A stretch of 28,443 bases of DNA, taken from a virus. A program made the position numbers and the translations under genes. Of the stretch, positions 5,579-18,422 are shown one piece after another (the stretch's first letter is position 1; each line of letters opens with the position of its first letter). The notes under the pieces are model-generated. The model saw nothing but the letters and a program-made list of their open reading frames with translations. It did not search any database and was not told the origin of the DNA. The stretch lies in IMG/VR virus record IMGVR_UViG_3300029825_000558. One strand, written 5' to 3'.

Positions 5579-6469
5579 CTACCGGGCAATTACCATATCA
5601 TTGGTATCGATTTTATCATACTTTGCTGTACCAAACCGCCCGTATTTCTCAATCATGTAGTGTCCCGGTTTAACAGATGAGCGCCTCATTCGGAGTTCTG
5701 AATCTTTGGGAATAAGGGCCGCTTTTAAATAGATCCTCATCATGATCTTCTCAAGTATAGTCCAATCAACTGTCCGTGAATCATGAAACGCTATCAGAAA
5801 TGACATTTTTGTCTTTCTGAGGTCTCGGACAATTGAATCCCTAAACCAGTCTTGAAAGTGCCGTTGCGGATTCTTCGCGTTAAGTCTGAGGATGTGATCC
5901 GCCTCATCGATGATAACGGTAACAAATTCGTCTGGATTCTTATTCTTTTTTATAAAGTAAATGACTTCGTAAATGAAGAACGCGCCCGGGATCCGCTTAG
6001 GGGGGGTGTCAAGGAACTGTGACTCCATAATCTCCTCAAGGAGTTCCTCGTCCATAGAGTAGTGTCGTGGCTCGTAGACAATGTTTACCCACCCCCGTTT
6101 TAAATTCTGTGCAATCTCATACCCAGTATTGTATCTCAGCGTTTCTACTTCAATCGGGTTCCCACTTGTATCTAAAAATGAAATATCGTCACCAAAAAAG
6201 ACATGCACGCAGATTTTTTTTCCTTGAATCAGATGCCAGTTGTCTTCTTCTCGCCCCCTCCAGACCACCGTCTCTTTCATTAACCTTTTTTTTGCGTTAT
6301 CGAAATACGCAACTCTGCCAGCGATGGTTACCAGTAGCGACGTTTTCCCCGTCCCAGGGGGAGCCCATATCGCCGCCAGTTCCCCCCCACTCTCCGGGTA
6401 GTGTGTCAATAGTTCTTGTGAGAGGCGGGCACCCTCACGGATAGATATTTGCTCGCCAAACTGAGACAT
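5579..6469 (-). CDS. P-loop ATPase (viral packaging/extrusion type), 296 aa
   Basis: Walker A APPGTGKTS, Walker B VIIDEA, followed by RK..hhhhFH as in FtsK/HerA-like viral ATPases. Confidence 0.85.
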   Translation of the reverse strand: MSQFGEQISIREGARLSQELLTHYPESGGELAAIWAPPGTGKTSLLVTIAGRVAYFDNAKKRLMKETVVWRGREEDNWHLIQGKKICVHVFFGDDISFLDTSGNPIEVETLRYNTGYEIAQNLKRGWVNIVYEPRHYSMDEELLEEIMESQFLDTPPKRIPGAFFIYEVIYFIKKNKNPDEFVTVIIDEADHILRLNAKNPQRHFQDWFRDSIVRDLRKTKMSFLIAFHDSRTVDWTILEKIMMRIYLKAALIPKDSELRMRRSSVKPGHYMIEKYGRFGTAKYDKIDTNDMVIAR

Positions 6470-7058: not shown

Positions 7059-7406
7059 ATGCAGCCCCAAGCAGAACTGTCTCGTCATGCTGCAAAGGCA
7101 GCAATCAAATATAATCTACCTGATCTAGTCTACCAGTACTTGCAGTTTGTCGGCAGAGATCGAGAATGGATCGTTGCATTTGATATTGCCAAACACTTCA
7201 ACCTCGGCCCTCGACAAACTGCAATCAGTGATGGCTTGAAGAGGCTGCACGACAACGGATCGAAGAGATTGTTGGATCCTAATCTCATTTCAGAGAGTCC
7301 TATTTTTGTACTTCAAATGAAAAAACGGTGGCACACATCGTCACGAAAAAATGTTCGCGTATTCCTGGTGGAGCGCAACCACTTCTACAAACAATCTTTG
7401 GCCTGA
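7059..7406 (+). CDS. Putative winged-helix DNA-binding protein (~115 aa)
   Basis: Pattern EWIVAFDIAKHFNL...TAISDGLKRLHD...RVFLV; divergent from the ATPase operon. Confidence 0.5.
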   Translation: MQPQAELSRHAAKAAIKYNLPDLVYQYLQFVGRDREWIVAFDIAKHFNLGPRQTAISDGLKRLHDNGSKRLLDPNLISESPIFVLQMKKRWHTSSRKNVRVFLVERNHFYKQSLA

Positions 7407-8306: not shown

Positions 8307-8870
8307 ATGAGACCACGAGGCAAAGCCGCCCCCTACCGAACCGGCGAATACGCCCTGACACGGAAAGAGTATGAGAAAGCCCTGGCCGCCTGCCAGAACC
8401 TAGAGGACCGGGTGCTGATCATGGTCGGCTGCACCCTCGGCCTGCGGCGCTCTGATATCGTGCGGCTCGAGTGGGCGAACATTGATATCCGGGATCCAGA
8501 GAGTGCGACCGTCACCTACCAAGAGAAGAAGAAGGGCAACCGGCTACGGACGGTCCCAATCGGGCCGAAGCTCGCACAAGAACTTATGATCCTGCGGAAC
8601 ACTCAACCCCGGACACAGAAGACAGTGTTCTCGTTCAAAGACCGGCAGGCATACAACCGGTTCCAAAAGGTCTGCTTGATCGCCGGTATCGAGGAGAGGC
8701 CGTTCCACGCGCTCCGGGCGACGGCGATCAAGTTCATGCAGGCGGCGGGGTGGCGGCCGGAGGAAGTCGCGGAGATCATCGGGGATACGCTCCGGACGAT
8801 CCAGGAGCATTACACTACGCCGAGCCGGTCGGAGCTGGCGGAGGCTGCAAAGGAGAAGGAGGTTGTTTGA
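8307..8870 (+). CDS. int: Tyrosine recombinase/integrase, catalytic domain only (187 aa)
   Basis: LGLRRSDI (R), KKKG (K), FHALR (HxxR), IGDT, EHYT (Tyr); TATA-like GGTATATTAA upstream. Confidence 0.92.
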   Translation: MRPRGKAAPYRTGEYALTRKEYEKALAACQNLEDRVLIMVGCTLGLRRSDIVRLEWANIDIRDPESATVTYQEKKKGNRLRTVPIGPKLAQELMILRNTQPRTQKTVFSFKDRQAYNRFQKVCLIAGIEERPFHALRATAIKFMQAAGWRPEEVAEIIGDTLRTIQEHYTTPSRSELAEAAKEKEVV

Positions 8871-9504: not shown

Positions 9505-9678
9505 TCATTCCTCGGGGGAAGAGTGATAGATCCTAGAGTGGAGGTAGATCACACCCCCTATGGCGAACATCAACCCCGCGATCAACAAGATTTGACATAG
9601 GAGATCCCCCGCCATCAGTCCGAGAGAGTCAGTATGCGGCAACAGCCCAAAATCATCAGCGGTGATGTTGGATATCAT
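9505..9678 (-). CDS. Small TM protein, 57 aa (MISNITADD...SSPEE), last gene of the early operon
   Basis: Hand translation; ATGA overlap with the stop of 9675..10100; followed by stacked stops and a T-run. Confidence 0.55.
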   Translation of the reverse strand: MISNITADDFGLLPHTDSLGLMAGDLLCQILLIAGLMFAIGGVIYLHSRIYHSSPEE

Positions 9679-10100
9679 GGTGCCCGCGGGAGGGAGCTGA
9701 TCACCTTCATCCGAGCCCTTAACGCCTCCCTCATCAGTTGCTCCTTCGTCTGCTCACATGCGGCTGCGTTGGGAACCACGCCCTGCATCTGCATGTAGGA
9801 GTAGATGGCTTTACCAGCCTCCTGCACGTATTCAGAGCAGGTGATAGATCCTCCTCTGTCCCGGAGGAGCCTGACGTCCTGAATGCCGCTGTAGATTTCC
9901 GCGTACATGGAGAACACCTCGAAACACCGGGCCAAACCAGCCCAATATTCTCCGGTCATGTTGTCGGCAACGTAGCGGCCCAACACATTGAGACAGATCA
10001 ATTCCTGCATGTCTTCCAGGGAGACATGCCCTTCTTTGACCCAGAATACCTTATCCAGCCCTTCAATCATGTTTTGCATGATTGTTTCCCTGCTCAACAT
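9675..10100 (-). CDS. Hypothetical protein, 141 aa
   Basis: Track ORF starting right after a junction motif. Confidence 0.75.
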   Translation of the reverse strand: MLSRETIMQNMIEGLDKVFWVKEGHVSLEDMQELICLNVLGRYVADNMTGEYWAGLARCFEVFSMYAEIYSGIQDVRLLRDRGGSITCSEYVQEAGKAIYSYMQMQGVVPNAAACEQTKEQLMREALRARMKVISSLPRAP

Positions 10101-10103
10101 CTT

Positions 10104-10286
10104 TCACCTCTCTACCAGCCCTTCCGAGTAACCTCTTGCCAGCAGGTCGGCGCGGATATCGCCCCCGGAGTGATCGGGGCAATAGGGGTAGATATCCCCA
10201 TCGGCACACTCGACATATTGCCAACCCACCACAGGCTCTTCTTCGGACTCGCCCTCCTTCCCACACAGCACGCATTTATGGATCAT
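10104..10286 (-). CDS. Zn-finger micro-protein, 60 aa (CxxC...C...YCxxH), ends LVER
   Basis: Track ORF flanked by junction motifs. Confidence 0.75.
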   Translation of the reverse strand: MIHKCVLCGKEGESEEEPVVGWQYVECADGDIYPYCPDHSGGDIRADLLARGYSEGLVER

Positions 10287-10481
10287 CTATTGCCCCTCTA
10301 CCAGCAGATCGATCTGCTGCATAAAATATTCTTGATCGGGATCTTCTCGACGCAGCCGGGCCATGAACGCCCCATACCACACCCCAAATAGGTCGGGGCT
10401 CCCTAGAGCGGTTTCAACCTCCAGCAGGCCGAGGTAGTATGTGGTGCAATCCCCCTGCACGGATCTTAACCATTCAAGCAC
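10287..10481 (-). CDS. Hypothetical protein, 64 aa, ends LVEGQ
   Basis: Track ORF flanked by junction motifs. Confidence 0.7.
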   Translation of the reverse strand: MLEWLRSVQGDCTTYYLGLLEVETALGSPDLFGVWYGAFMARLRREDPDQEYFMQQIDLLVEGQ

Positions 10482-10487
10482 GATCTT

Positions 10488-10685
10488 TCACCTCTCTACC
10501 AGGGCATCAACCGCCCTGCGGTTACATTCGACACATAGCCCCTTTCCGACCTCAATGAAAGTCATCGATGGGAACAAGTGTGCGGGGTAGACCTCGCGGG
10601 CCGCTGCCAGGCTGTCAGCCAGCAGATACCAACCGCCCCGGATGATCTCTTCATTCGCGGATTCAACGCGGAATACTAGCTTCAT
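10488..10685 (-). CDS. Hypothetical protein, 65 aa (CxxC), ends LVER
   Basis: Track ORF flanked by junction motifs. Confidence 0.7.
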   Translation of the reverse strand: MKLVFRVESANEEIIRGGWYLLADSLAAAREVYPAHLFPSMTFIEVGKGLCVECNRRAVDALVER

Positions 10686-10696
10686 CCTTCAGTCCT

Positions 10697-10969
10697 CTAC
10701 CACGGCTTGTAACGGTAGTTGATGTGATAGGACCAATGATACTCACAGTACCTATACCCACAATCAGGACACTCTCTTACTTCCCCGCTGCACGTGGTAG
10801 CACTCATCTCACACATACCCCGGTCTCGTCGCTCCTGCCTTAGTTCTGAATTAGACCCAGGGGGACGGCAGGGGTGATTCACCCAGGCAGCACGATTATA
10901 GGGATGCAGTCGCGTCTTACCATCTGTTCCGACGATGGGAGGATATTTTTCTACCATGCTTTTACTCAT
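10697..10969 (-). CDS. Zn-finger protein, 90 aa (C...C...CPDC...YCEYH)
   Basis: Track ORF; AN1-like Cys/His spacing. Confidence 0.7.
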   Translation of the reverse strand: MSKSMVEKYPPIVGTDGKTRLHPYNRAAWVNHPCRPPGSNSELRQERRDRGMCEMSATTCSGEVRECPDCGYRYCEYHWSYHINYRYKPW

Positions 10970-11996
10970 CTACCATCTTTTCAACTTCTGCGATTGCCTG
11001 GAAGATAGGATAGACCTGTTGAGGTACTACCGCGTTTCCGAGACATCGCAGCCTGTCCACCCGATGGGAAATCCCATCAGCCACTCCACAAACTCCGGAT
11101 TCAAGTACTGGGGATGGCATTTCCCTTTCTCCCCACGATACGGGTTGTGCGAACCGCCCCATTCGTCTATCCTGCCGTTCTGGTTCCCGGAGACCGAAGT
11201 GGGGGTGTAGAACATCCCGCGAATCAGTGCCCCTGGCACCGTGTCCCGGTGCAGTTGCGATGGGGGAAGCGTCGAGTTCTTCGCATCCTGGGCGCAGGGG
11301 GTCGGGACCATCTGCAGGACCGCCGTCTGTAGGTTCAGCCCTCCGGTGCCGTGCTCCCCCGCTCCGGTGTGACAATTCGCGTGCGGAGTGGGATACATCC
11401 TCGCGGCGCCCACGAGGGTCGGTACTGGTTTGGATGGGTCGCCCCTCGAGTACTGATAGGCGTGCCCCTGGGCATCTGCCCGCGTCATCGTGGGCCACAA
11501 TGAATACCCGATCTCGCATGTGCGGGGCACCGACCCCCGCAGCCGGAAGAAGGAACGCCCGGCAGGAGTAACCCGCACACTCCAGGTCAGTAAGCACGTC
11601 ATCGAGTGCCAGACTGACGAGGCCAGCAACATTCTCTCCAATGACCCAAGTGGGCCGGAGTTCCTGCACCACTCTAAGCATTTCCGGCCAGAGGTGACGG
11701 TCATCCTCCGTGCCTCGGCGCTTCCCGGCACAGGAGAACGGCTGGCAGGGGAAGCCTCCGGACAGTACGGTCGGTGCATGTTCGATGCCGGCTTCCCGGA
11801 CAGTGTGAATTGTGACATCCTTGATATCCTCCCATCGCGGCACATCGGGCCAGTGCTTTTTTAGGATCTTGTTCGCGTAGTCGCTCTTTTCGACCTGACC
11901 GACCGTCTGAAACCCGACCCACTCGGCGGCCAGGTCGAGCCCGCCAATCCCGCTGAATAGCGAGAAGTGGGTGAGGGGTATGCTACCGCTTGTCAT
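10962..11996 (-). CDS. C5 cytosine DNA methyltransferase, alpha polypeptide (344 aa)
   Basis: Motif I FSLFSGIGG, IV GGFPCQPFS, VI ENV, VIII PHMRDRVF, X LGNAVVP; motif IX is absent from this frame. Confidence 0.93.
   Translation of the reverse strand: MTSGSIPLTHFSLFSGIGGLDLAAEWVGFQTVGQVEKSDYANKILKKHWPDVPRWEDIKDVTIHTVREAGIEHAPTVLSGGFPCQPFSCAGKRRGTEDDRHLWPEMLRVVQELRPTWVIGENVAGLVSLALDDVLTDLECAGYSCRAFLLPAAGVGAPHMRDRVFIVAHDDAGRCPGARLSVLEGRPIQTSTDPRGRREDVSHSARELSHRSGGARHRRAEPTDGGPADGPDPLRPGCEELDASPIATAPGHGARGTDSRDVLHPHFGLREPERQDRRMGRFAQPVSWGEREMPSPVLESGVCGVADGISHRVDRLRCLGNAVVPQQVYPIFQAIAEVEKMVDE
11027..11818 (-). CDS. C5 methyltransferase beta polypeptide nested in an alternative frame (~263 aa, start MSQFTLS)
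   Basis: Carries the motif IX-like LNPEFVEWLMGFPIGWT and repeated WPT/YPTP/VPTP units; GGGAGG RBS ~10 nt before the ATG. Confidence 0.75.
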   Translation of the reverse strand: MSQFTLSGKPASNMHRPYCPEASPASRSPVPGSAEARRMTVTSGRKCLEWCRNSGPLGSLERMLLASSVWHSMTCLLTWSVRVTPAGRSFFRLRGSVPRTCEIGYSLWPTMTRADAQGHAYQYSRGDPSKPVPTLVGAARMYPTPHANCHTGAGEHGTGGLNLQTAVLQMVPTPCAQDAKNSTLPPSQLHRDTVPGALIRGMFYTPTSVSGNQNGRIDEWGGSHNPYRGEKGKCHPQYLNPEFVEWLMGFPIGWTGCDVSETR

Positions 11997-12198
11997 TGCA
12001 GTCCTCTACCAGCCCAACCGCCTCTTTAAAGCGAATTTCGATCTCATCAACCAAGTCTTCCACTGTTTTAGTTAATTCTCCGTTCCTGAGAGCTTTTTCA
12101 AGCACCTCTAAGACCATTGTTCCGAAATCATCGTTCCATTCTTCTTCCGATGATTTTATATCCATATGGTTGTACCGTTCTATTACCGATTTCTTCAT
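11983..12198 (-). CDS. Hypothetical acidic protein, 71 aa
   Basis: Track ORF flanked by junction motifs. Confidence 0.7.
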   Translation of the reverse strand: MKKSVIERYNHMDIKSSEEEWNDDFGTMVLEVLEKALRNGELTKTVEDLVDEIEIRFKEAVGLVEDCNDKR

Positions 12199-12226
12199 TT
12201 TTCATTAACCTCCGTACTACTGTTTT

Positions 12227-12448
12227 CTACCATTTGCGCTCCCTTTGGCATTGTAGGGCGCGTTTGCCTTCGGCATATTCACACCATGACAAGTAAGACA
12301 CATACGCCAAAGATCCAAGGAATGATGTGGAGTCTTCCGGCTCCGGCTCTGGCCGGTGCGTGGGCTCTACGTGCGTCAACTCCAGAAGTTTCAGCATCAA
12401 TAGAATCCACATTACCAGTGCCGCTAGAATTACTACGATCTCCGTCAT
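12227..12448 (-). CDS. Small TM protein, 73 aa
   Basis: Track ORF; N-terminal hydrophobic helix; its stop is the TAG of the motif. Confidence 0.65.
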   Translation of the reverse strand: MTEIVVILAALVMWILLMLKLLELTHVEPTHRPEPEPEDSTSFLGSLAYVSYLSWCEYAEGKRALQCQRERKW

Positions 12449-12449
12449 G

Positions 12450-12623
12450 CTATCTCTCCTCTACCACGAGCCTGCGGATCTCGTCCCGGGGCGACAGGAT
12501 CGTCGGGTCCGGGCAGTGCTCGTCGCAGGCGTACAGCAGACCATACTCGGCTCCAGCCCGGCGGATCTCAATCTCCCAGGTTGCCGGGCGGTTGCAGCCT
12601 CTGGTTGTGCAGTTCGGCATCAT
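12450..12623 (-). CDS. Zn-finger micro-protein, 57 aa (MMPNCTTRGC...YACDEHC...LVVEER)
   Basis: Hand translation between two junction motifs. Confidence 0.7.
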   Translation of the reverse strand: MMPNCTTRGCNRPATWEIEIRRAGAEYGLLYACDEHCPDPTILSPRDEIRRLVVEER

Positions 12624-12626
12624 GGT

Positions 12627-12761
12627 TCACTCCTCTACCACGAAGTGTTTACACTGCTCACGCCGTATCGGGGGCTCGTTGTAGGGCCAACAGACCCTCA
12701 ATGACGCTCCGGGGCGGAAGCATTTTTTGCCATCTGTGCTCTGATATTTGCACCTCGCCAT
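12627..12761 (-). CDS. Cys-rich micro-protein, 44 aa (MARCKYQ...CKHFVVEE)
   Basis: Hand translation between two junction motifs; four Cys. Confidence 0.65.
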   Translation of the reverse strand: MARCKYQSTDGKKCFRPGASLRVCWPYNEPPIRREQCKHFVVEE

Positions 12762-12763
12762 CT

Positions 12764-13093
12764 CTATCTCTCCTCTACCATCTTGCCCGCGTCCCCGTCT
12801 CGGATCTCAGCGAGGTTGCCAGCGGCGATCTCGTTGAGGTCGAGGATGCAGGCCGGGATCGTGGGGTCGCCTAGACGCCAGTATTCATGCATCGATGCTG
12901 ATATCTCCCGAAGGATAGCCTCTTCGAGATCACAGGCCTCTTCTTCGGAGCGGCACTCGGCCAGGGGCCAAATGTACGTGTGGATGACTGCATAGACATT
13001 GCCTCGGGTGGTGTGCTCTAGACTGCCGAACGCAGAGATCGGAAACGTCGCTACTTTGCCCCCGGAACGGGCACGGATAAAAATTGGTTCCAT
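12764..13093 (-). CDS. Hypothetical protein, 109 aa, ends MVEER
   Basis: Track ORF flanked by junction motifs. Confidence 0.75.
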   Translation of the reverse strand: MEPIFIRARSGGKVATFPISAFGSLEHTTRGNVYAVIHTYIWPLAECRSEEEACDLEEAILREISASMHEYWRLGDPTIPACILDLNEIAAGNLAEIRDGDAGKMVEER

Positions 13094-13096
13094 CTT

Positions 13097-13252
13097 CTAC
13101 TCCTCTACCACTTCAGGCAGCGGGTCTAGCCGCACCACCTTGATACGTAGACCTTGCCACGCTAGCGGGAGGTTGGCGCGGGCGCTATACTGGTTCCCAG
13201 AGCGCACGACCATTTCAATAGCCTCGTACCCCTCAATCTCATAACGATCCAT
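13097..13252 (-). CDS. DUF2080-like (AbrB-type beta) small archaeal protein, 51 aa
   Basis: Hand translation MDRYEIEGYEAIEMVVRSGNQYSARANLPLAWQGLRIKVVRLDPLPEVVEE matches the (F/Y)EIEGYE...LPxxWxGxxhKhVRL pattern. Confidence 0.7.
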   Translation of the reverse strand: MDRYEIEGYEAIEMVVRSGNQYSARANLPLAWQGLRIKVVRLDPLPEVVEE

Positions 13253-13269
13253 TCAAACCACCACGGGAA

Positions 13270-13545
13270 TTATTTGGCCGAGGCTATGACCTTCATAAGC
13301 CTCGTGTATCCTGCCTTGATCTGACGGTATGTGTTTTCTGGGAGTTGGTCCTTCTTGAGTGCAATTGCTTCGATAATCTTGTCTCTCTGCCTCTCGTCAA
13401 AACAGATGCGGTACTTTTTTGAGTAGACTGCTCCCTTCTTACCCTGGCCGCGACCACTTGCTGCCACATCAAACGCTCTGACTTCAACGCCCTCGATACC
13501 TTTGCAGATATCGCCCGCCTCGATGATGGTTGTCTGTACTTCCAT
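13270..13545 (-). CDS. Hypothetical protein, 91 aa
   Basis: Track ORF; GGAGA RBS; downstream of an internal promoter. Confidence 0.75.
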   Translation of the reverse strand: MEVQTTIIEAGDICKGIEGVEVRAFDVAASGRGQGKKGAVYSKKYRICFDERQRDKIIEAIALKKDQLPENTYRQIKAGYTRLMKVIASAK

Positions 13546-13562
13546 TTGTCTCGTCTCCTTGT

Positions 13563-13605
13563 TACAATACCTATATTATATCTATTAGTATAAATAGGTA
13601 TTGTA
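13563..13605 (-). promoter_or_regulatory. Internal promoter with a perfect 12-bp inverted repeat (TACAATACCTAT-N19-ATAGGTATTGTA) enclosing the TATA box TTTATA
   Basis: Direct reading; AT-rich gap in the array. Confidence 0.75.
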
Positions 13606-13638
13606 TGAGGTAAGGATCTATCTATCGATCCTCTACCA

Positions 13639-13827
13639 TCACTCGTCCTCTAATGGGCACCGTGGATCAATCTCATCCAGGCGGTCTTTGTGCAGTACAA
13701 GCCTTTTATCTTGCCCCAAACACCAAACCTCGGTGTAGTGCTCTCCCTCTTCCCCTAACCCAGGCAAGTACTCTTCAGATGCCCAAGGACATTCCCGGCA
13801 AGAGGGAACTTTTATTATTTTCACCAT
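13639..13827 (-). CDS. Cys-containing micro-protein, 62 aa (CRECPW...WC...CPL)
   Basis: Track ORF flanked by motifs. Confidence 0.7.
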   Translation of the reverse strand: MVKIIKVPSCRECPWASEEYLPGLGEEGEHYTEVWCLGQDKRLVLHKDRLDEIDPRCPLEDE

Positions 13828-14022
13828 TCACCTCTCTATCAACTGTTTTTCTTCGATATCCTTCCGTACAGAAGCCCCTTCCAAAAGGACAAGTGCCCCA
13901 ATAATGGCGAAAAGACTCAGTATCCCCAAGTCCTGATCCAATGTAGGCGCGGCGATCAGACAACCGAGCCCTGTGATACCTAGTGCCGTACCTAAGATCA
14001 AATCAAATTTCCATTTAGACAT
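13828..14022 (-). CDS. Two-TM micro-protein, 64 aa, ends LIER
   Basis: Track ORF. Confidence 0.7.
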   Translation of the reverse strand: MSKWKFDLILGTALGITGLGCLIAAPTLDQDLGILSLFAIIGALVLLEGASVRKDIEEKQLIER

Positions 14023-14350
14023 CGTTTTCCTCCGTACTGCTGTTTTCTACCATCTGAAAAGGGTAATTTCTCGCCCTGTTGAGTATGGCAAGTACCTGAT
14101 CAGGAGTCTGGTAACCTGCTACGGCGTCGTCTTCGTCGTTGGTGAGAGCCTTTGTGATTGTTTCTTGGTTGGCGTCCCACGCCATTACTTCAGCCGTCTT
14201 GCTCGCCCAATATCTCCGATCCTGGTTGCTAGTTAATATCTCGTCATAGTTGTCTGTGTGCGTCCCTGGATGGAACTGTACGGAGACAGTCACGCCGTTT
14301 TCAAAGGTGATGTGGAAACCACCTTTCCCAGTTACTTTGAATCCTGTCAT
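14015..14350 (-). CDS. Hypothetical protein, 111 aa (GFHITFENGVTVSVQF...TAEV)
   Basis: Track ORF after a junction motif. Confidence 0.75.
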   Translation of the reverse strand: MTGFKVTGKGGFHITFENGVTVSVQFHPGTHTDNYDEILTSNQDRRYWASKTAEVMAWDANQETITKALTNDEDDAVAGYQTPDQVLAILNRARNYPFQMVENSSTEENDV

Positions 14351-14351
14351 A

Positions 14352-14666
14352 TCACTCCTCTACCAAGCTAGGAATCTCGCCATATTCGCGTGCCTTGGCC
14401 TTCACTCAGTTGAATACCACCTCAGGGTCAACAACTGTCTTGGTGGGGTCGGCCAAGTCTGCGATAATTGCGCTGTAGGTGCGCCGGATGAGGGCCGGTA
14501 ACGATGGGCTCTCGGTAAATGGTCCGAAATCAACTAGGTTATAGCAAGCGCCCAGAACATCCTCTGCAACAACCCGAGTGGGTTCATTCCAGGTACCATC
14601 TATGCAAATTCTGACGACCTGAGAACTGTTCACGCATAATCCCGGTTCAACATGCAACAATTTCAT
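14352..14666 (-). CDS. 86-aa ORF (14406..14666) followed in frame, after one TGA, by 17 codons ending LVEE; possibly a truncated 104-codon gene
   Basis: Reads ...EVVFN*VKAKAREYGEIPSLVEE*. Confidence 0.6.
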
Positions 14667-14680
14667 AATCTACTCCTTTT

Positions 14681-14773
14681 CTACCATTCATTCCACCCGG
14701 GGTCTTGGAGTTCGACAAGTCTTGAGGTCGGCGTTGCGTCATCGCCTTCGCCCAAAAATACCTGATACCACAT
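14681..14773 (-). CDS. 30-aa micro-ORF copy A (MWYQVFLGEGDDATPTSRLVELQDPGWNEW)
   Basis: Hand translation; within a 113-bp unit duplicated at 15444-15556. Confidence 0.6.
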   Translation of the reverse strand: MWYQVFLGEGDDATPTSRLVELQDPGWNEW

Positions 14774-14793
14774 CGTCTATCTCTCCTCTACCA

Positions 14794-14937
14794 TCACGCC
14801 TTTTTTGCCTTCGACCAGACAGCAACCGGGAATGGCATCCCAGGGGTGTCTCGATATACACATTCGGGCGGTACCGCTCGACGAGATGTTTCTACCCGGC
14901 AGTTGTAATTGCACTCTTTGCATTCGTATACAGGCAT
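14794..14937 (-). CDS. Zn-ribbon micro-protein, 47 aa (MPVYECKECNYNC...)
   Basis: Hand translation between junction motifs. Confidence 0.65.
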   Translation of the reverse strand: MPVYECKECNYNCRVETSRRAVPPECVYRDTPGMPFPVAVWSKAKKA

Positions 14938-14940
14938 GTT

Positions 14941-15234
14941 TCACCCCTCTACCCGCCCTAGCGCTGCCTGCTCCTCGTCGCGGTTCCGCCACGTGAGGAA
15001 CATCGTCATTTGCTCGTCGCTCAGGTCTGCGACGAGGAGTACCGCGGGCCCCGGGTATCCATCGCCCGGGCACTCTGCCGTGGGGTAGATCCAGAGGCTC
15101 CCGCCGCAAATCGGGCAGTCATCCGGGCCTGCCGGGTAGCAGGAGCACGGGGCCGCGACCCCGCAGAGGTTCGGCTCCTGGTGCTCACATTTTTCGTAGT
15201 GGATGCAATCCTCGAAACAAGTCATTCCTTTCAC
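14941..15234 (-). CDS. Cys-rich protein, 97 aa, paralog A
   Basis: Track ORF; 73/97 aa identical to 15743..16036 by manual comparison. Confidence 0.8.
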   Translation of the reverse strand: MKGMTCFEDCIHYEKCEHQEPNLCGVAAPCSCYPAGPDDCPICGGSLWIYPTAECPGDGYPGPAVLLVADLSDEQMTMFLTWRNRDEEQAALGRVEG

Positions 15235-15238
15235 TCCT

Positions 15239-15415
15239 CTACCAGGAAGCCCCGACCCTCCGGTCTTCCGCGTCCTGATCGTCCGGACTCAGGCTGTCGT
15301 ACATCGCTTCTGCCTTTGCCTCGCATTCCGAGCACATCGCCCAATCCTCTTCCCAGAGGGCGGCGGTTTCGACAGTCAATTCCTTTCCACAGTTGCATTT
15401 CCTTACTTCTTCCAT
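15239..15415 (-). CDS. Zn-finger micro-protein, 58 aa (MEEVRKCNCG...MCSECE...)
   Basis: Hand translation; GGAGG RBS; its stop is the TAG of the motif. Confidence 0.7.
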   Translation of the reverse strand: MEEVRKCNCGKELTVETAALWEEDWAMCSECEAKAEAMYDSLSPDDQDAEDRRVGASW

Positions 15416-15443
15416 GATTCTCAGTCCTCCATGTTACGATTCT

Positions 15444-15536
15444 CTACCACTCATTCCACCCGGGGTCTTGGAGTTCGACAAGTCTTGAGGTCGGCGTTGC
15501 GTCATCGCCTTCGCCCAAAAATACCTGATACCACAT
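15444..15536 (-). CDS. 30-aa micro-ORF copy B (identical protein to 14681..14773)
   Basis: Hand translation. Confidence 0.6.
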   Translation of the reverse strand: MWYQVFLGEGDDATPTSRLVELQDPGWNEW

Positions 15537-15550
15537 CGTCTATCTCTCCT

Positions 15551-15739
15551 CTACCAGGGACATTCCCCGCTTTTAATCCAGCCATGTACCCAGGTCTGCC
15601 GGTAATCGCACTCAGGGCAGATCAATCCATCATTTGTTGCTATGAGGTCTCCGTGACCGTTCCCGCAGGTTAGCGGGTGGAATTTGCCGGATTGCTGATA
15701 CCTGTTGATATTTTCAACTTCCTCGTCGGTGAATATCAT
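15551..15739 (-). CDS. Zn-finger micro-protein, 62 aa (HPLTCGNGH...CPEC)
   Basis: Track ORF flanked by motifs. Confidence 0.75.
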   Translation of the reverse strand: MIFTDEEVENINRYQQSGKFHPLTCGNGHGDLIATNDGLICPECDYRQTWVHGWIKSGECPW

Positions 15740-15742
15740 CTT

Positions 15743-16036
15743 TCACTCCTCTACCAACTCAAGCGCCGCCATCTCTTCGTCGCGGTCCCGCCACATGAGG
15801 AGCATCGTCATCTGCTCATCGCTCAGGTCCACGGGCCGCAGGACGGCCGGACCCGGGTATCCATCGCCCGGGCACTCTGCCGTGGGGTAGATCCAGCATT
15901 TCCCGCCGCATTCCGGGCAGTCGTCAGAACAGAAGGGGAAGTGGCAGCACGGGGCCGCAACCCCACAGAGGTTCGGATTCAGGTGCTCACATTTTTCGTA
16001 GTAGATACAATCCTTGAAACAAGTCATTTCTTTCAC
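15743..16036 (-). CDS. Cys-rich protein, 97 aa, paralog B, ends LVEE
   Basis: Track ORF. Confidence 0.8.
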   Translation of the reverse strand: MKEMTCFKDCIYYEKCEHLNPNLCGVAAPCCHFPFCSDDCPECGGKCWIYPTAECPGDGYPGPAVLRPVDLSDEQMTMLLMWRDRDEEMAALELVEE

Positions 16037-16284
16037 TCCTCTACCATCTTAGGGGCGTTTGGTTTGCATTCTCCCCAGCGGATTTCTGCCATCTCTTCCT
16101 GCCATTGGTTGAGCTTGGCCTGGGAGACATACCCCTCTCCTTTGCAGAGCGAGCACGGGACAGACTCCCCGCATCCGTCGCACCCTAGATTCTCAGAACG
16201 CCTCTTGCATCCACCCAGATCGGTGGTTTGGCTCTTACAGAGCCTTCCATCTCCCCAACAAAGGGGACATTCAGCACTGTTCAT
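16033..16284 (-). CDS. DnaJ-like CxxCxGxG Zn-finger protein, 83 aa, ends MVEE
   Basis: CPLCWGDG, CDGC, CSLCKGEG. Confidence 0.75.
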   Translation of the reverse strand: MNSAECPLCWGDGRLCKSQTTDLGGCKRRSENLGCDGCGESVPCSLCKGEGYVSQAKLNQWQEEMAEIRWGECKPNAPKMVEE

Positions 16285-16334
16285 CTTCTACTCCTCTACC
16301 AAACTCGATACTCTCAATTCTTTCAGATTCGTCC

Positions 16335-17099
16335 TCAGCCCGACCCACCTCGCGTGATCTCGCACTTGTCGAGGTACACCGTGATATGACAGGCCGGGCA
16401 GGTCGTCCGATATTGCGACCCTCCGCGATACGTCCAGATGTGGCCGCACTTGTGGCACCGGAGCGGGATCCCCTTCATACGGCGGGCCTGCTCCTCACAG
16501 GCCGCCCTCACCTCCTCGACGCTCTCCACCTCGTCGGCCCCGGGACCGATCAGGGCCATCCCGCGCTTGTCAACGGCCCAAACCGGATAGGCCGTATCGA
16601 CCCCCTCCGGGATCGGGGCGGACGGGAGCGAGTCCATCTCCACGTAGTCCTCCGCTCTCCGGTCGGCCCGGTCGGCGGTCTCGTCCAGCCGCGTGAGCAA
16701 CTCCACCAACCGGGATACATCTTCCGTATCCCAGGCTCGGATCTCCCGCGCGATTATCCGAGCGGCCCGGTCGAGGACCTCGAGGTACGCGGCCCGGTCG
16801 ATCCCCTCCAAGGCGAAGAGGGCCTCGTCGTAGTCGTCATCTATCCAGATCGTCGTCGCGGCCGAAAGGGCGGGGAGGTGCTCGGTAGGCTCTCCATCTG
16901 TCCCGATCGCGTACTCTGCGACCTCGCGGAGCGGGACCAGCCGCAGCTCCTGCACCAGCACCCCGCGCTCGCTCTCCGTGAGCGAGTCAAGGACCTCGAT
17001 CGCGTCCTCATCCAGCGCGAGGTACTCCCGCGCTTCGTCGTAGTCGAGCCGGACCCTGATCGCCGGCTCGCCGTACCAGGTTGTTGTTTCGTGTTTCAT
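16335..17099 (-). CDS. Acidic protein with C-terminal Zn ribbon (~254 aa, start MKHETTTW)
   Basis: C-terminal CHKCGHIW...CPAC; GAGGGG RBS; stop codon lies inside the 29-bp repeat. Confidence 0.8.
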   Translation of the reverse strand: MKHETTTWYGEPAIRVRLDYDEAREYLALDEDAIEVLDSLTESERGVLVQELRLVPLREVAEYAIGTDGEPTEHLPALSAATTIWIDDDYDEALFALEGIDRAAYLEVLDRAARIIAREIRAWDTEDVSRLVELLTRLDETADRADRRAEDYVEMDSLPSAPIPEGVDTAYPVWAVDKRGMALIGPGADEVESVEEVRAACEEQARRMKGIPLRCHKCGHIWTYRGGSQYRTTCPACHITVYLDKCEITRGGSG

Positions 17100-18116: not shown

Positions 18117-18422
18117 TCAGATCGAAATGATCCGGGCTACTCGCACACTCTCAGCGCTCGCATAGACTGACTGGCCTGTGCGGAGGGCCTCCAGGAGGTC
18201 CTGCCCGTCGTAACTCTCGTTATCGATCGAGAGGTCGTCCCGGGAGACCCTCACCTCCACCACCGCGAGATCCTCCTCATCGTCGCCCTGGTATGCGTAC
18301 TCCTGTGCGACCGCTCTTCGGGGGGTCAGGTAGACCCGCCCGGGGAAAAACCCGGCCTGCTGGATCCCCTCTGCGTTCCGCAGAGAGGTCCCGTGGTAGA
18401 GTGTAATCGAGTTCATAATCAT
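18117..18422 (-). CDS. ADP-ribosyltransferase-fold-like protein, 101 aa
   Basis: LYHGT...GF...VYLT...AQEYA...VVEVRV, typical of the H-Y-class ART/Tpt1-like NAD-binding core. Confidence 0.55.
   Translation of the reverse strand: MIMNSITLYHGTSLRNAEGIQQAGFFPGRVYLTPRRAVAQEYAYQGDDEEDLAVVEVRVSRDDLSIDNESYDGQDLLEALRTGQSVYASAESVRVARIISI

Follow-up and report, generated by a model that had tools for sequence, protein, structure and literature searches.

We analyzed a 28,443-nt stretch of DNA from a virus (IMG/VR record IMGVR_UViG_3300029825_000558; hereafter the window), in which small genes are packed into an array whose junctions carry copies of a short recurring element, the linker, built around the 7-nt core TGGTAGA. 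An earlier sequence-only reading of this DNA had proposed that the linker is a shared crossover site through which single genes are gained, lost, or swapped. Here, we place the linker within the window, compare the window with related loci and public sequencing runs, which at the level of sequence show that single genes have been shuffled at the linker, and weigh how this exchange might come about. All positions are those of the whole window, and the array and its linkers are read on the minus strand.

The array and its linker

We counted 24 exact copies of TGGTAGA on the minus strand of the window versus one on the plus strand, while dinucleotide shuffles of the window (n = 100) averaged 2.42 copies with a maximum of 7, and the consensus TGGTAGAGGAG, allowing up to two mismatches, gave 36 matches versus 6.95 expected. 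Inside the array (10098-16302) we found 23 exact cores and one GGGTAGAGGGG (GGGTAGA) variant at 14944-14954, which bears out the roughly 24 same-strand junction copies counted previously; the long sub-variants at 12209-12232 and 14029-14052 are likewise as first described. Nearly all copies lie 9-33 nt before the start of the next gene and overlap or directly follow the upstream stop, such that a typical junction runs from TGGTAGA through a leader with GGAG, GGAGG, or AGGTG to ATG. Upstream genes end within the linker as TGG TAG, as G GTA GAG GAG TGA, or as ...AGA TAG, and more rarely end just before it. Exceptions are the copy at 10950-10956, which overlaps a start codon (A-TGGTAGA-AAAA), the copy at 13632-13638, which is followed by an AT-rich promoter-like spacer and no ribosome-binding site, and the copies at 16295-16301 and 14359-14365, which lie in 30-40-nt spacers without overlapping an upstream open reading frame (ORF). 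The long variants (12209-12232, 14029-14052, and 15439-15449) have a separate GGAGG 12-14 nt past the core, which makes core and Shine-Dalgarno site separable modules.

The linker is confined to the array. None of the 30 long ORFs beyond it is preceded by TGGTAGA, although several have GGAGG-type ribosome-binding sites, and no copy lies within structural genes, in agreement with the sequence-only reading. The 24th exact minus-strand copy, at 7129-7135, falls outside the array, where it closes a 52-amino-acid ORF (7130-7288) as TGG TAG; in the same stretch (7100-7135, minus strand) a second GGTAGA lies 14 nt downstream, beside a TTATATTT box, in the main divergent intergenic region. The sole plus-strand copy (18394-18400, +) lies inside the minus-strand gene 18117-18422, within 30 nt of its start; its mRNA would contain UCUACCA, the complement of the core, and this may be chance. 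Within the array, the motif-to-motif units span 107-1036 nt, and their genes are all orphans except a C5 DNA methylase; searches of the unit proteins against Pfam and PHROGs returned nothing over curated cut-offs (Table 1).

Table 1. The array, its linker copies in reading direction, and one duplicated unit.
Feature	Sequence	Position	Strand
Array: about 25 small same-strand genes (30-141 amino acids) and a 344-amino-acid C5 DNA methylase		10098-16302	-
First linker of array; in 30-nt spacer after the 254-amino-acid gene	TGGTAGAGGAG, then TAGAAG-ATG	16291-16301	-
Linker heading unit A1	TGGTAGAGGAG-TGAAAGAA-ATG	16036-16046	-
Linker heading unit X (62 amino acids)	TGGTAGAGGAG-TGAAAG-ATG	15746-15756	-
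Linker heading unit B1 (30 amino acids); upstream gene ends TGG TAG	TGGTAGAGGAG-AGATAGACG-ATG	15546-15556	-
Long linker heading unit Z (58 amino acids)	TGGTAGAGAATCGTAACATGGAGG...ATG	15439-15449	-
Linker heading unit A2, paralogue of A1	TGGTAGAGGAG-TGAAAGGA-ATG	15234-15244	-
Degenerate linker heading unit Y (47 amino acids)	GGGTAGAGGGG-TGAAAC-ATG	14944-14954	-
Linker heading unit B2	TGGTAGAGGAG-AGATAGACG-ATG	14783-14793	-
Linker variant	TGGTAGAAAAGGAGTAGATT-ATG	14676-14686	-
Linker in 40-nt spacer	TGGTAGAGGAG-TGAT-ATG	14355-14365	-
Long linker with separate GGAGG Shine-Dalgarno site	TGGTAGAAAACAGCAGTACGGAGG	14029-14052	-
Linker followed by AT-rich palindromic promoter-like spacer (~13560-13630)	TGGTAGAGGAT	13628-13638	-
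Linker	TGGTAGAGGAG-TAGAAG-ATG	13100-13110	-
Linker	TGGTAGAGGAG-AGATAGAG-ATG	12770-12780	-
Linker	TGGTAGAGGAG-TGAACC-ATG	12630-12640	-
Linker	TGGTAGAGGAG-AGATAGC-ATG	12456-12466	-
Long linker	TGGTAGAAAACAGTAGTACGGAGG	12209-12232	-
Linker heading the C5 methylase unit (10962-11996)	TGGTAGAGGAC-TGCA-ATG	12001-12011	-
Linker; methylase ends ...MVDE*	TGGTAGATGAG-TAAAAGC-ATG	10965-10975	-
Copy overlapping the next gene's start codon (ATG GTA GAA AAA)	TGGTAGAAAAA	10946-10956	-
Linker	TGGTAGAGGAC-TGAAGG-ATG	10692-10702	-
Linker	TGGTAGAGAGG-TGAAAGATC-GTG	10491-10501	-
Linker	TGGTAGAGGGG-CAATAG-ATG	10293-10303	-
Last linker of array, heading the 141-amino-acid gene 9675-10100	TGGTAGAGAGG-TGAAAG-ATG	10107-10117	-
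Unit B2, motif-to-motif duplicate of unit B1 (15442-15556)		14679-14793	-

Exchange of units among related elements

A metagenome scan with a 20-nt linker pattern matched at least 120 contigs; 120 of these and eight further loci gave a comparison set of 128 related loci and the window. TGGTAGA occurs 600 times on the array strand versus 19 times on the other strand in the window and the 128 loci listed, and judged by these matches the linker is conserved across a large virus family.

Sequence comparison within this set is what shows the shuffling of single genes at the linker. In the window itself, units B1 and B2 are identical from core to core except for 1 base in ~114 nt; the neighbouring pair A1 and A2 is clearly diverged, and X and Y are unrelated. 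Between genomes, the window and locus L109 share a single array segment, unit Z, which begins at the T of one core, runs through the whole of the following linker, and spans 222 bp at 99.1% identity, versus 87% for a backbone gene; the corresponding unit and backbone identities are 96.9% versus 79% for L206 and 97.1% versus 92% for L164. In all-against-all comparison, 717 of 1976 left ends of homology blocks (unique, internal) fell on the core's T and another 189 at position -1, and 334 of 1831 right ends fell on its last A and 958 within +6 to +25, these being counts of unique sequence contexts and not of independent events. Positions -4 to 0 of the core make up <1% of the sequence yet hold 56% of left ends. 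Cutting the loci at cores yielded 460 complete units (median 238 nt) in 220 families. These units are joined in many combinations: 305 of 348 observed adjacencies are distinct, 53 of the 89 multi-member families have at least two different downstream neighbours, and the largest families have 8-15 neighbours on each side. Further, one and the same 20-23-nt linker can stand before as many as 8 unrelated gene families.

The same pattern appears within single samples. We used assembled contigs from three DNA runs (landfill, wastewater, and leachate) and a digester RNA library, from four studies, and in all four the contig pieces were single motif-to-motif units (e.g., 10297-10501, 12774-13110, 14046-14365, 15238-15449, and 15546-15756). 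Assemblies thus break at every linker, and as the linker is shorter than the assembler word, each unit must have more than one neighbour per sample. Depth per bin ranged from 8 to 22,350 within one run, and such differences imply that some units are present in many more genomes or elements than the window's own; in one landfill run, summed contig depth was 22,350 at 10428-10641 versus 8.6 at 13210-13423, a spread of more than three orders of magnitude. The digester metatranscriptome library held units at 99-100% identity, but as contigs these are informative on neither transcription nor RNA ends. Contig joints touching linkers were considered as deletions and rejected; they had only 20-30 matching letters on one side and reflected the resemblance of linker copies to one another (e.g., a leader variant accounts for the joint from 12620 to 15229).

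Homology blocks and assembly-graph branches, then, start and end at the linker. With breakpoints on the core, units at 97-99% identity against backbones at 79-92%, scrambled order, and linker-fragmented assemblies, the proposal of a shared crossover site for single-gene gain, loss, and swap has held up, and the gene order of relatives, which the sequence-only reading had singled out as a check, is not fixed. None of the outcomes that this reading had named as refuting was observed.

The element that carries the array is best read, from its gene content and relatives, as a PAV1-like archaeal virus or plasmid-like element of ~28 kb. Most of its proteins are orphans and it has no tRNA genes, but a 296-amino-acid P-loop ATPase (5579-6469, minus strand) matches an ORF of Pyrococcus abyssi virus 1 (PAV1) at 30% identity over 93% of its length (E = 2e-24). 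This match, to an uncharacterised PAV1 ORF, is the element's sole link to a cultured virus, and the ATPase also matches phrog_22963. The 254-amino-acid protein encoded upstream of the array has >150 relatives (74-91% identity) from digester, fermentation, and bioreactor metagenomes, several of which are on 26-30 kb contigs, and the window is therefore probably a near-complete genome. The gene for this zinc-ribbon protein (16335-17099, minus strand) is on the array strand in the window and on the opposite strand in loci L103, L106, and L108, and so this module has been inverted or re-inserted. In IMG/VR, the exact 14-mer gave only single chance matches and the 254-amino-acid protein had no relatives. 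Of two scans of species-representative genomes, the first returned nothing, and the second returned four chance matches and one family member, on a 23.6-kb contig binned in a euryarchaeal metagenome-assembled genome (MAG) labelled 'Methanobacteriota archaeon'; the host is thus probably a methanogen. The 11-mer is not enriched in this candidate host MAG (9 copies versus 13 for a reversed control). Together with the absence of the linker from structural genes, this runs counter to the motif being equally common at host or structural junctions, a possibility the earlier reading had flagged as able to undo it.

The AT-rich spacer at 13555-13640 (minus strand) holds a palindrome, ATACCTAT...ATAGGTAT, and TATA-like boxes, and is probably an internal promoter or operator. 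The 91-amino-acid gene that it precedes (13270-13545) lacks a TGGTAGA core but is equipped with an AAGGAG site of its own. In the C5 methylase gene, contigs of all four runs omit 102 bp at 11388-11489 (34 codons, in frame), with further indels of 183 and 447 bp nearby in one run; the variable stretch sits where the target-recognition region would be, and an exact database look-up of the methylase found no record.

The core as a signal and its possible readers

Conservation of the core is at the nucleotide, not the peptide, level. In the 460 unique contexts, the frame of the upstream ORF gives GTA GAG across the core in 308 cases and TGG TAG in 91, with the third frame used in 30; the base after TGGTAG is A in 600 cases, G in 27, T in 7, and C in 5 among the loci listed; and sequences that differ from the core at one base are each far less frequent than it, most being near the other-strand level. 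The ...VEE frame is the one used across the core by two thirds of upstream genes, and one might suppose that there is no signal and that we see a C-terminal ...VEE peptide shared within a protein family, or a repeat due to composition or chance. We give this next to no credence, as the motif is found in three frames as well as in non-coding spacers, valine in terminal VEE is encoded by GTA in 119 of 121 cases versus 21% in ORF bodies, none of the 100 shuffles attained the observed count, and the unit proteins are unrelated orphans. Codon usage likewise ruled out a C-terminal ...VEE peptide tag.

Pairing with ribosomal RNA would account for the leader and leaves the core unexplained. In six relatives of the MAG with the family member, 16S rRNA ends in ...GGAUCACCUCCU-3', and GGAG, GGAGG, and GGTGA pair with ...GAUCACCUCCU-3' of 16S in these relatives, taking the candidate clade as host. 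No complement to TGGTA or to the core was found at the 3' end or elsewhere in candidate-host-clade 16S, and the earlier statement that Shine-Dalgarno pairing does not explain TGGTA therefore holds for this clade. Several ways around this were tried and rejected. Extended anti-Shine-Dalgarno pairing of TGGTA fails, as 16S ends in CCUCCU-3' and the downstream spacer (aaugaaauu) and the rest hold no complement. A Firmicute host with TAGA:UCUA-3' tail pairing would be out of register and leave TGG unexplained, and the PAV1-like ATPase and the euryarchaeal bin favour an archaeal host. UCUACCA has the look of acceptor bases followed by ACCA, and TGGTAG agrees with the end of archaeal initiator tRNA, a likeness that we take to be coincidence; a complement of a tRNA 3' end would need C at the seventh base, where A was observed in 600 of 639 cases. 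Finally, motif-centred 70-nt windows fold less stably than mid-unit windows (-13.8 versus -19.0 kcal/mol) and hold no hairpin, inverted repeat, or attC-like fold, and a structured site at the linker was ruled out on the ground that junctions are less structured than gene interiors.

Next to the array lies a gene that could be thought to act on it. A recombinase gene adjoins the 3' end of the array in convergent orientation; in the window it is at 8307-8870 (+) and encodes a 187-amino-acid Phage_integrase-domain protein, and its counterparts are at L103:13082-13660, L106:11362-11940, and L108:11520-12101. The window, L103, and L106 encode a short (187-192 amino acids) tyrosine-type protein here, and L108 and L109 a 193-amino-acid serine resolvase, which looks like non-orthologous replacement at one position. 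The linker is identical in genomes with either type, which argues against either recombinase being the specific reader of the core. Relatives also hold a second linker type, (T)GTGCGTAG or GTGCGTGA followed by a GGTGA-type Shine-Dalgarno site (L103:16500-19200; L109:6800-8900, minus strand), of which none was found in the window; TGTGCGTAG occurs 29 times on the array strand versus 0 on the other in the relatives' loci, and the same upstream gene end (…GACGAGATCCGCAGG) precedes either linker type.

One way to read these features is as a dedicated, integron-like site-specific system, in which TGGTAGA would be the core site of a viral or host recombinase or nuclease and the Shine-Dalgarno leader would travel along. 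Seven nucleotides is the size of the overlap region of tyrosine recombinases, and the core has just this size, is invariant, and is sharply bounded, with position -1 unconstrained, no conserved sequence from -15 to -1, and G (71%) or A (25%) at +7. Homology ends concentrate on both of its edges, and the two unrelated linker types break at the linker edge after the same upstream genes. Against these points stand the lack of flanking inverted repeats and of an attC-like fold, and a core that is always on the mRNA-sense strand beside the ribosome-binding site. A small recombinase gene does always adjoin the array, but its type changes while the core does not; the units are promoterless and in one orientation, as in integrons, but identical 20-23-nt linkers across unrelated genes would suffice for non-specific exchange, and no circles were seen in the contigs of the four runs. 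We therefore consider a dedicated system of this kind rather improbable, and hold the same low expectation for its more specific form, in which TGGTAGA would be the recognition site of a putative sequence-specific archaeal-virus or methanogen factor that actively mobilises single promoterless genes. If true, this would mean cassette exchange with a 7-nt site and without attC-like structure, within a translationally coupled array, i.e., an archaeal-virus counterpart of the integron with different chemistry.

The distance from the core T to the start codon varies, mostly over 17-34 nt, which helps to keep the site-specific reading alive and counts against a second alternative, namely that the core is a pure expression signal. 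Here the core, much like the start-associated sequences (SAS) of cluster K mycobacteriophages, would bind a viral or host factor on the mRNA, as a repressor or activator site of an orphan-gene regulon, an aid to coupling or reinitiation, or a target of an endoribonuclease that cuts polycistronic RNA, and shuffling would be ordinary mosaicism in which intact junctions are selected. The fixed sense orientation beside the Shine-Dalgarno site, the restriction to the non-structural array, and the open structure of the junctions relative to gene bodies, as expected of ribosome-binding sites, are what such a signal would produce, and at motif-less junctions breakpoints are likewise near start codons. 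The motif is also absent from the candidate host, as SAS are from mycobacterial genomes (PMC3203893). However, selection acting on random breaks predicts partial, doubled, or missing linkers, whereas exactly one in-register copy is observed with breakpoints on the core, and 305 distinct adjacencies among 348, with branching at every linker within samples, imply a high rate of exchange. On this evidence, a pure expression signal is unlikely but deserves to be taken seriously.

A proposed mechanism and its precedents

The reading that we favour, with a probability of about 0.55, is short-homology recombination at an expression linker, in an array carried by a PAV1-like element, over a dedicated recombinase. 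The array would be a tightly packed set of accessory orphan genes, probably co-transcribed, and its linker comprises the invariant 7-nt core TGGTAGA and a leader with a Shine-Dalgarno site (GGAG, GGAGG, or GGTGA) that runs into the start codon. In abutting units, the linker of unit n+1 also terminates gene n: one frame meets the TAG inside the core, and a second frame meets TGA or TAG in the leader. Every junction is therefore a ready-made stop-plus-restart site. In-register recombination between linkers of the same genome or of co-infecting relatives would then delete, duplicate, replace, or move whole units, with each recombinant retaining a stop and a ribosome-binding site. We infer that the exchange may proceed by short-homology recombination or template switching by general viral or host machinery, with no dedicated recombinase, because the identical linkers that precede unrelated families would make homology patches available to viral or host recombination or replication. 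The core itself may be kept because it is read during expression, in translation coupling, by a regulator, or in RNA processing.

Several observations weigh against short-homology exchange at an expression linker. A sharp-edged invariant 7-nt core exceeds the needs of homology exchange or ribosome binding, and no reader of it was found in this analysis. Its variable distance to the start poorly fits a fixed role in the initiation complex, and the core is not required for translation, given core-less array genes at 13270-13545 (with its own promoter) and 13097-13252. Where TGGTAGA and GTGCGTAG... follow the same upstream gene in different genomes, the break is at the 5' edge of linkers that have no common homology. 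Further, the homology ends are contexts rather than events, no excised circle or motif-to-motif deletion was directly seen in the assembled contigs of the four runs, and the host assignment depends on one binned MAG contig and the 30%-identity ATPase match.

Among known systems, integrons have an IntI tyrosine integrase, an attI site, and a promoter Pc at the array head, and each cassette carries one attC site of R''-L''...L'-R' imperfect repeats that folds as single-stranded DNA. The array resembles them in its single direction, its recurring site, and its promoterless single-gene units, which are found in many orders and contexts. It differs in having no attC-like imperfect inverted repeat or fold and no IntI-type integrase at its head, the nearest recombinase being at the 3' end and of varying type, and in that the recurring site doubles as stop and ribosome-binding site. 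The label 'integron-like' given by the sequence-only reading is thus apt for the array architecture and for none of the other hallmarks of integrons, with no dedicated recombinase linked to the motif. Termination-reinitiation coupling with a Shine-Dalgarno site inside the upstream gene is found in bacteria and archaea, and the linker shares with such junctions a GGAG(T)GA in the last codons of the upstream gene and a stop 3-9 nt from the next start. Unlike the linker, junctions in ordinary coupling differ between genes, and their Shine-Dalgarno site has no invariant 7-nt element on its 5' side. That exchangeable genes should be separated by 'linker' sequences was a prediction of the modular theory of phage evolution; to our knowledge, there are few clean natural examples, the main one being the promoter-early stem-loop (PeSL) cassettes of T4-type phages.

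In function, PeSLs come nearest to the linker among known systems (Arbiol et al. 2010, PMC2839356; Comeau et al. 2014, PMC4122927). Both have a hyperplastic region in which small orphan genes lie between conserved junction elements, single genes are inserted, deleted, or replaced with breakpoints in the junction element, as found here for the linker array, and the element carries expression signals such that recombinants would remain expressed. PeSLs are ~100 bp long and combine a sigma-70 promoter with a stem-loop terminator, which makes each cassette its own transcription unit (PMC2839356); their authors liken them to integrons, and mini-circles have been demonstrated for them (PMC2839356; PMC4122927). 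In contrast, the linker here is 7-23 nt and has no promoter or hairpin, its overlap with the stop and the Shine-Dalgarno site leaving a promoter no room; it overlaps the upstream stop and couples genes translationally in apparently one transcript; and the host is probably archaeal, versus bacterial for PeSLs.

By anatomy, SAS are the closest known system. They occur as 11-19 copies of 5'-GGGATAGGAGCCC a few nucleotides upstream of gene starts (Pope et al. 2011, PMC3203893), mostly at gene gaps >50 bp, half of them with 17-bp inverted repeats (ESAS); their function is unknown, and they were not reported as recombination boundaries (PMC3203893). Like the linker, SAS are short asymmetric motifs with a Shine-Dalgarno core and conserved bases unable to pair with 16S rRNA (for the linker, that of the candidate host clade), have one orientation, precede unrelated families of non-structural genes only, and are essentially absent from the host. 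The likeness is one of analogy only, as the consensus here, TGGTAGAGGAG, differs from GGGATAGGAGCCC; other differences are the host domain, the element here being archaeal-virus-like, the upstream-stop overlap, and the lack of inverted repeats here, and that the role of recombination boundary is the best-supported property of the linker. A literature search for the motif string returned unrelated primers only. The earlier suggestion of an undescribed system thus stands insofar as no paper with the motif was found, but linker-mediated modular shuffling itself is known from PeSLs. New here are an unusually small linker, modularity that is translational rather than transcriptional, an archaeal setting, and strong population-level evidence.

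Together, these comparisons describe, in a probable archaeal virus, a 7-23-nt linker in which a stop codon, a restart site, and a crossover point coincide. Short-read assemblies fall apart at every gene of such arrays, and the accessory genomes of viruses in digesters are thus systematically under-assembled. The linker bears on what reads conserved bases beside ribosome-binding sites, a question shared with mycobacteriophage SAS, and provides a tractable system for studying the turnover of viral orphan genes and the minimal sequence able to target recombination.

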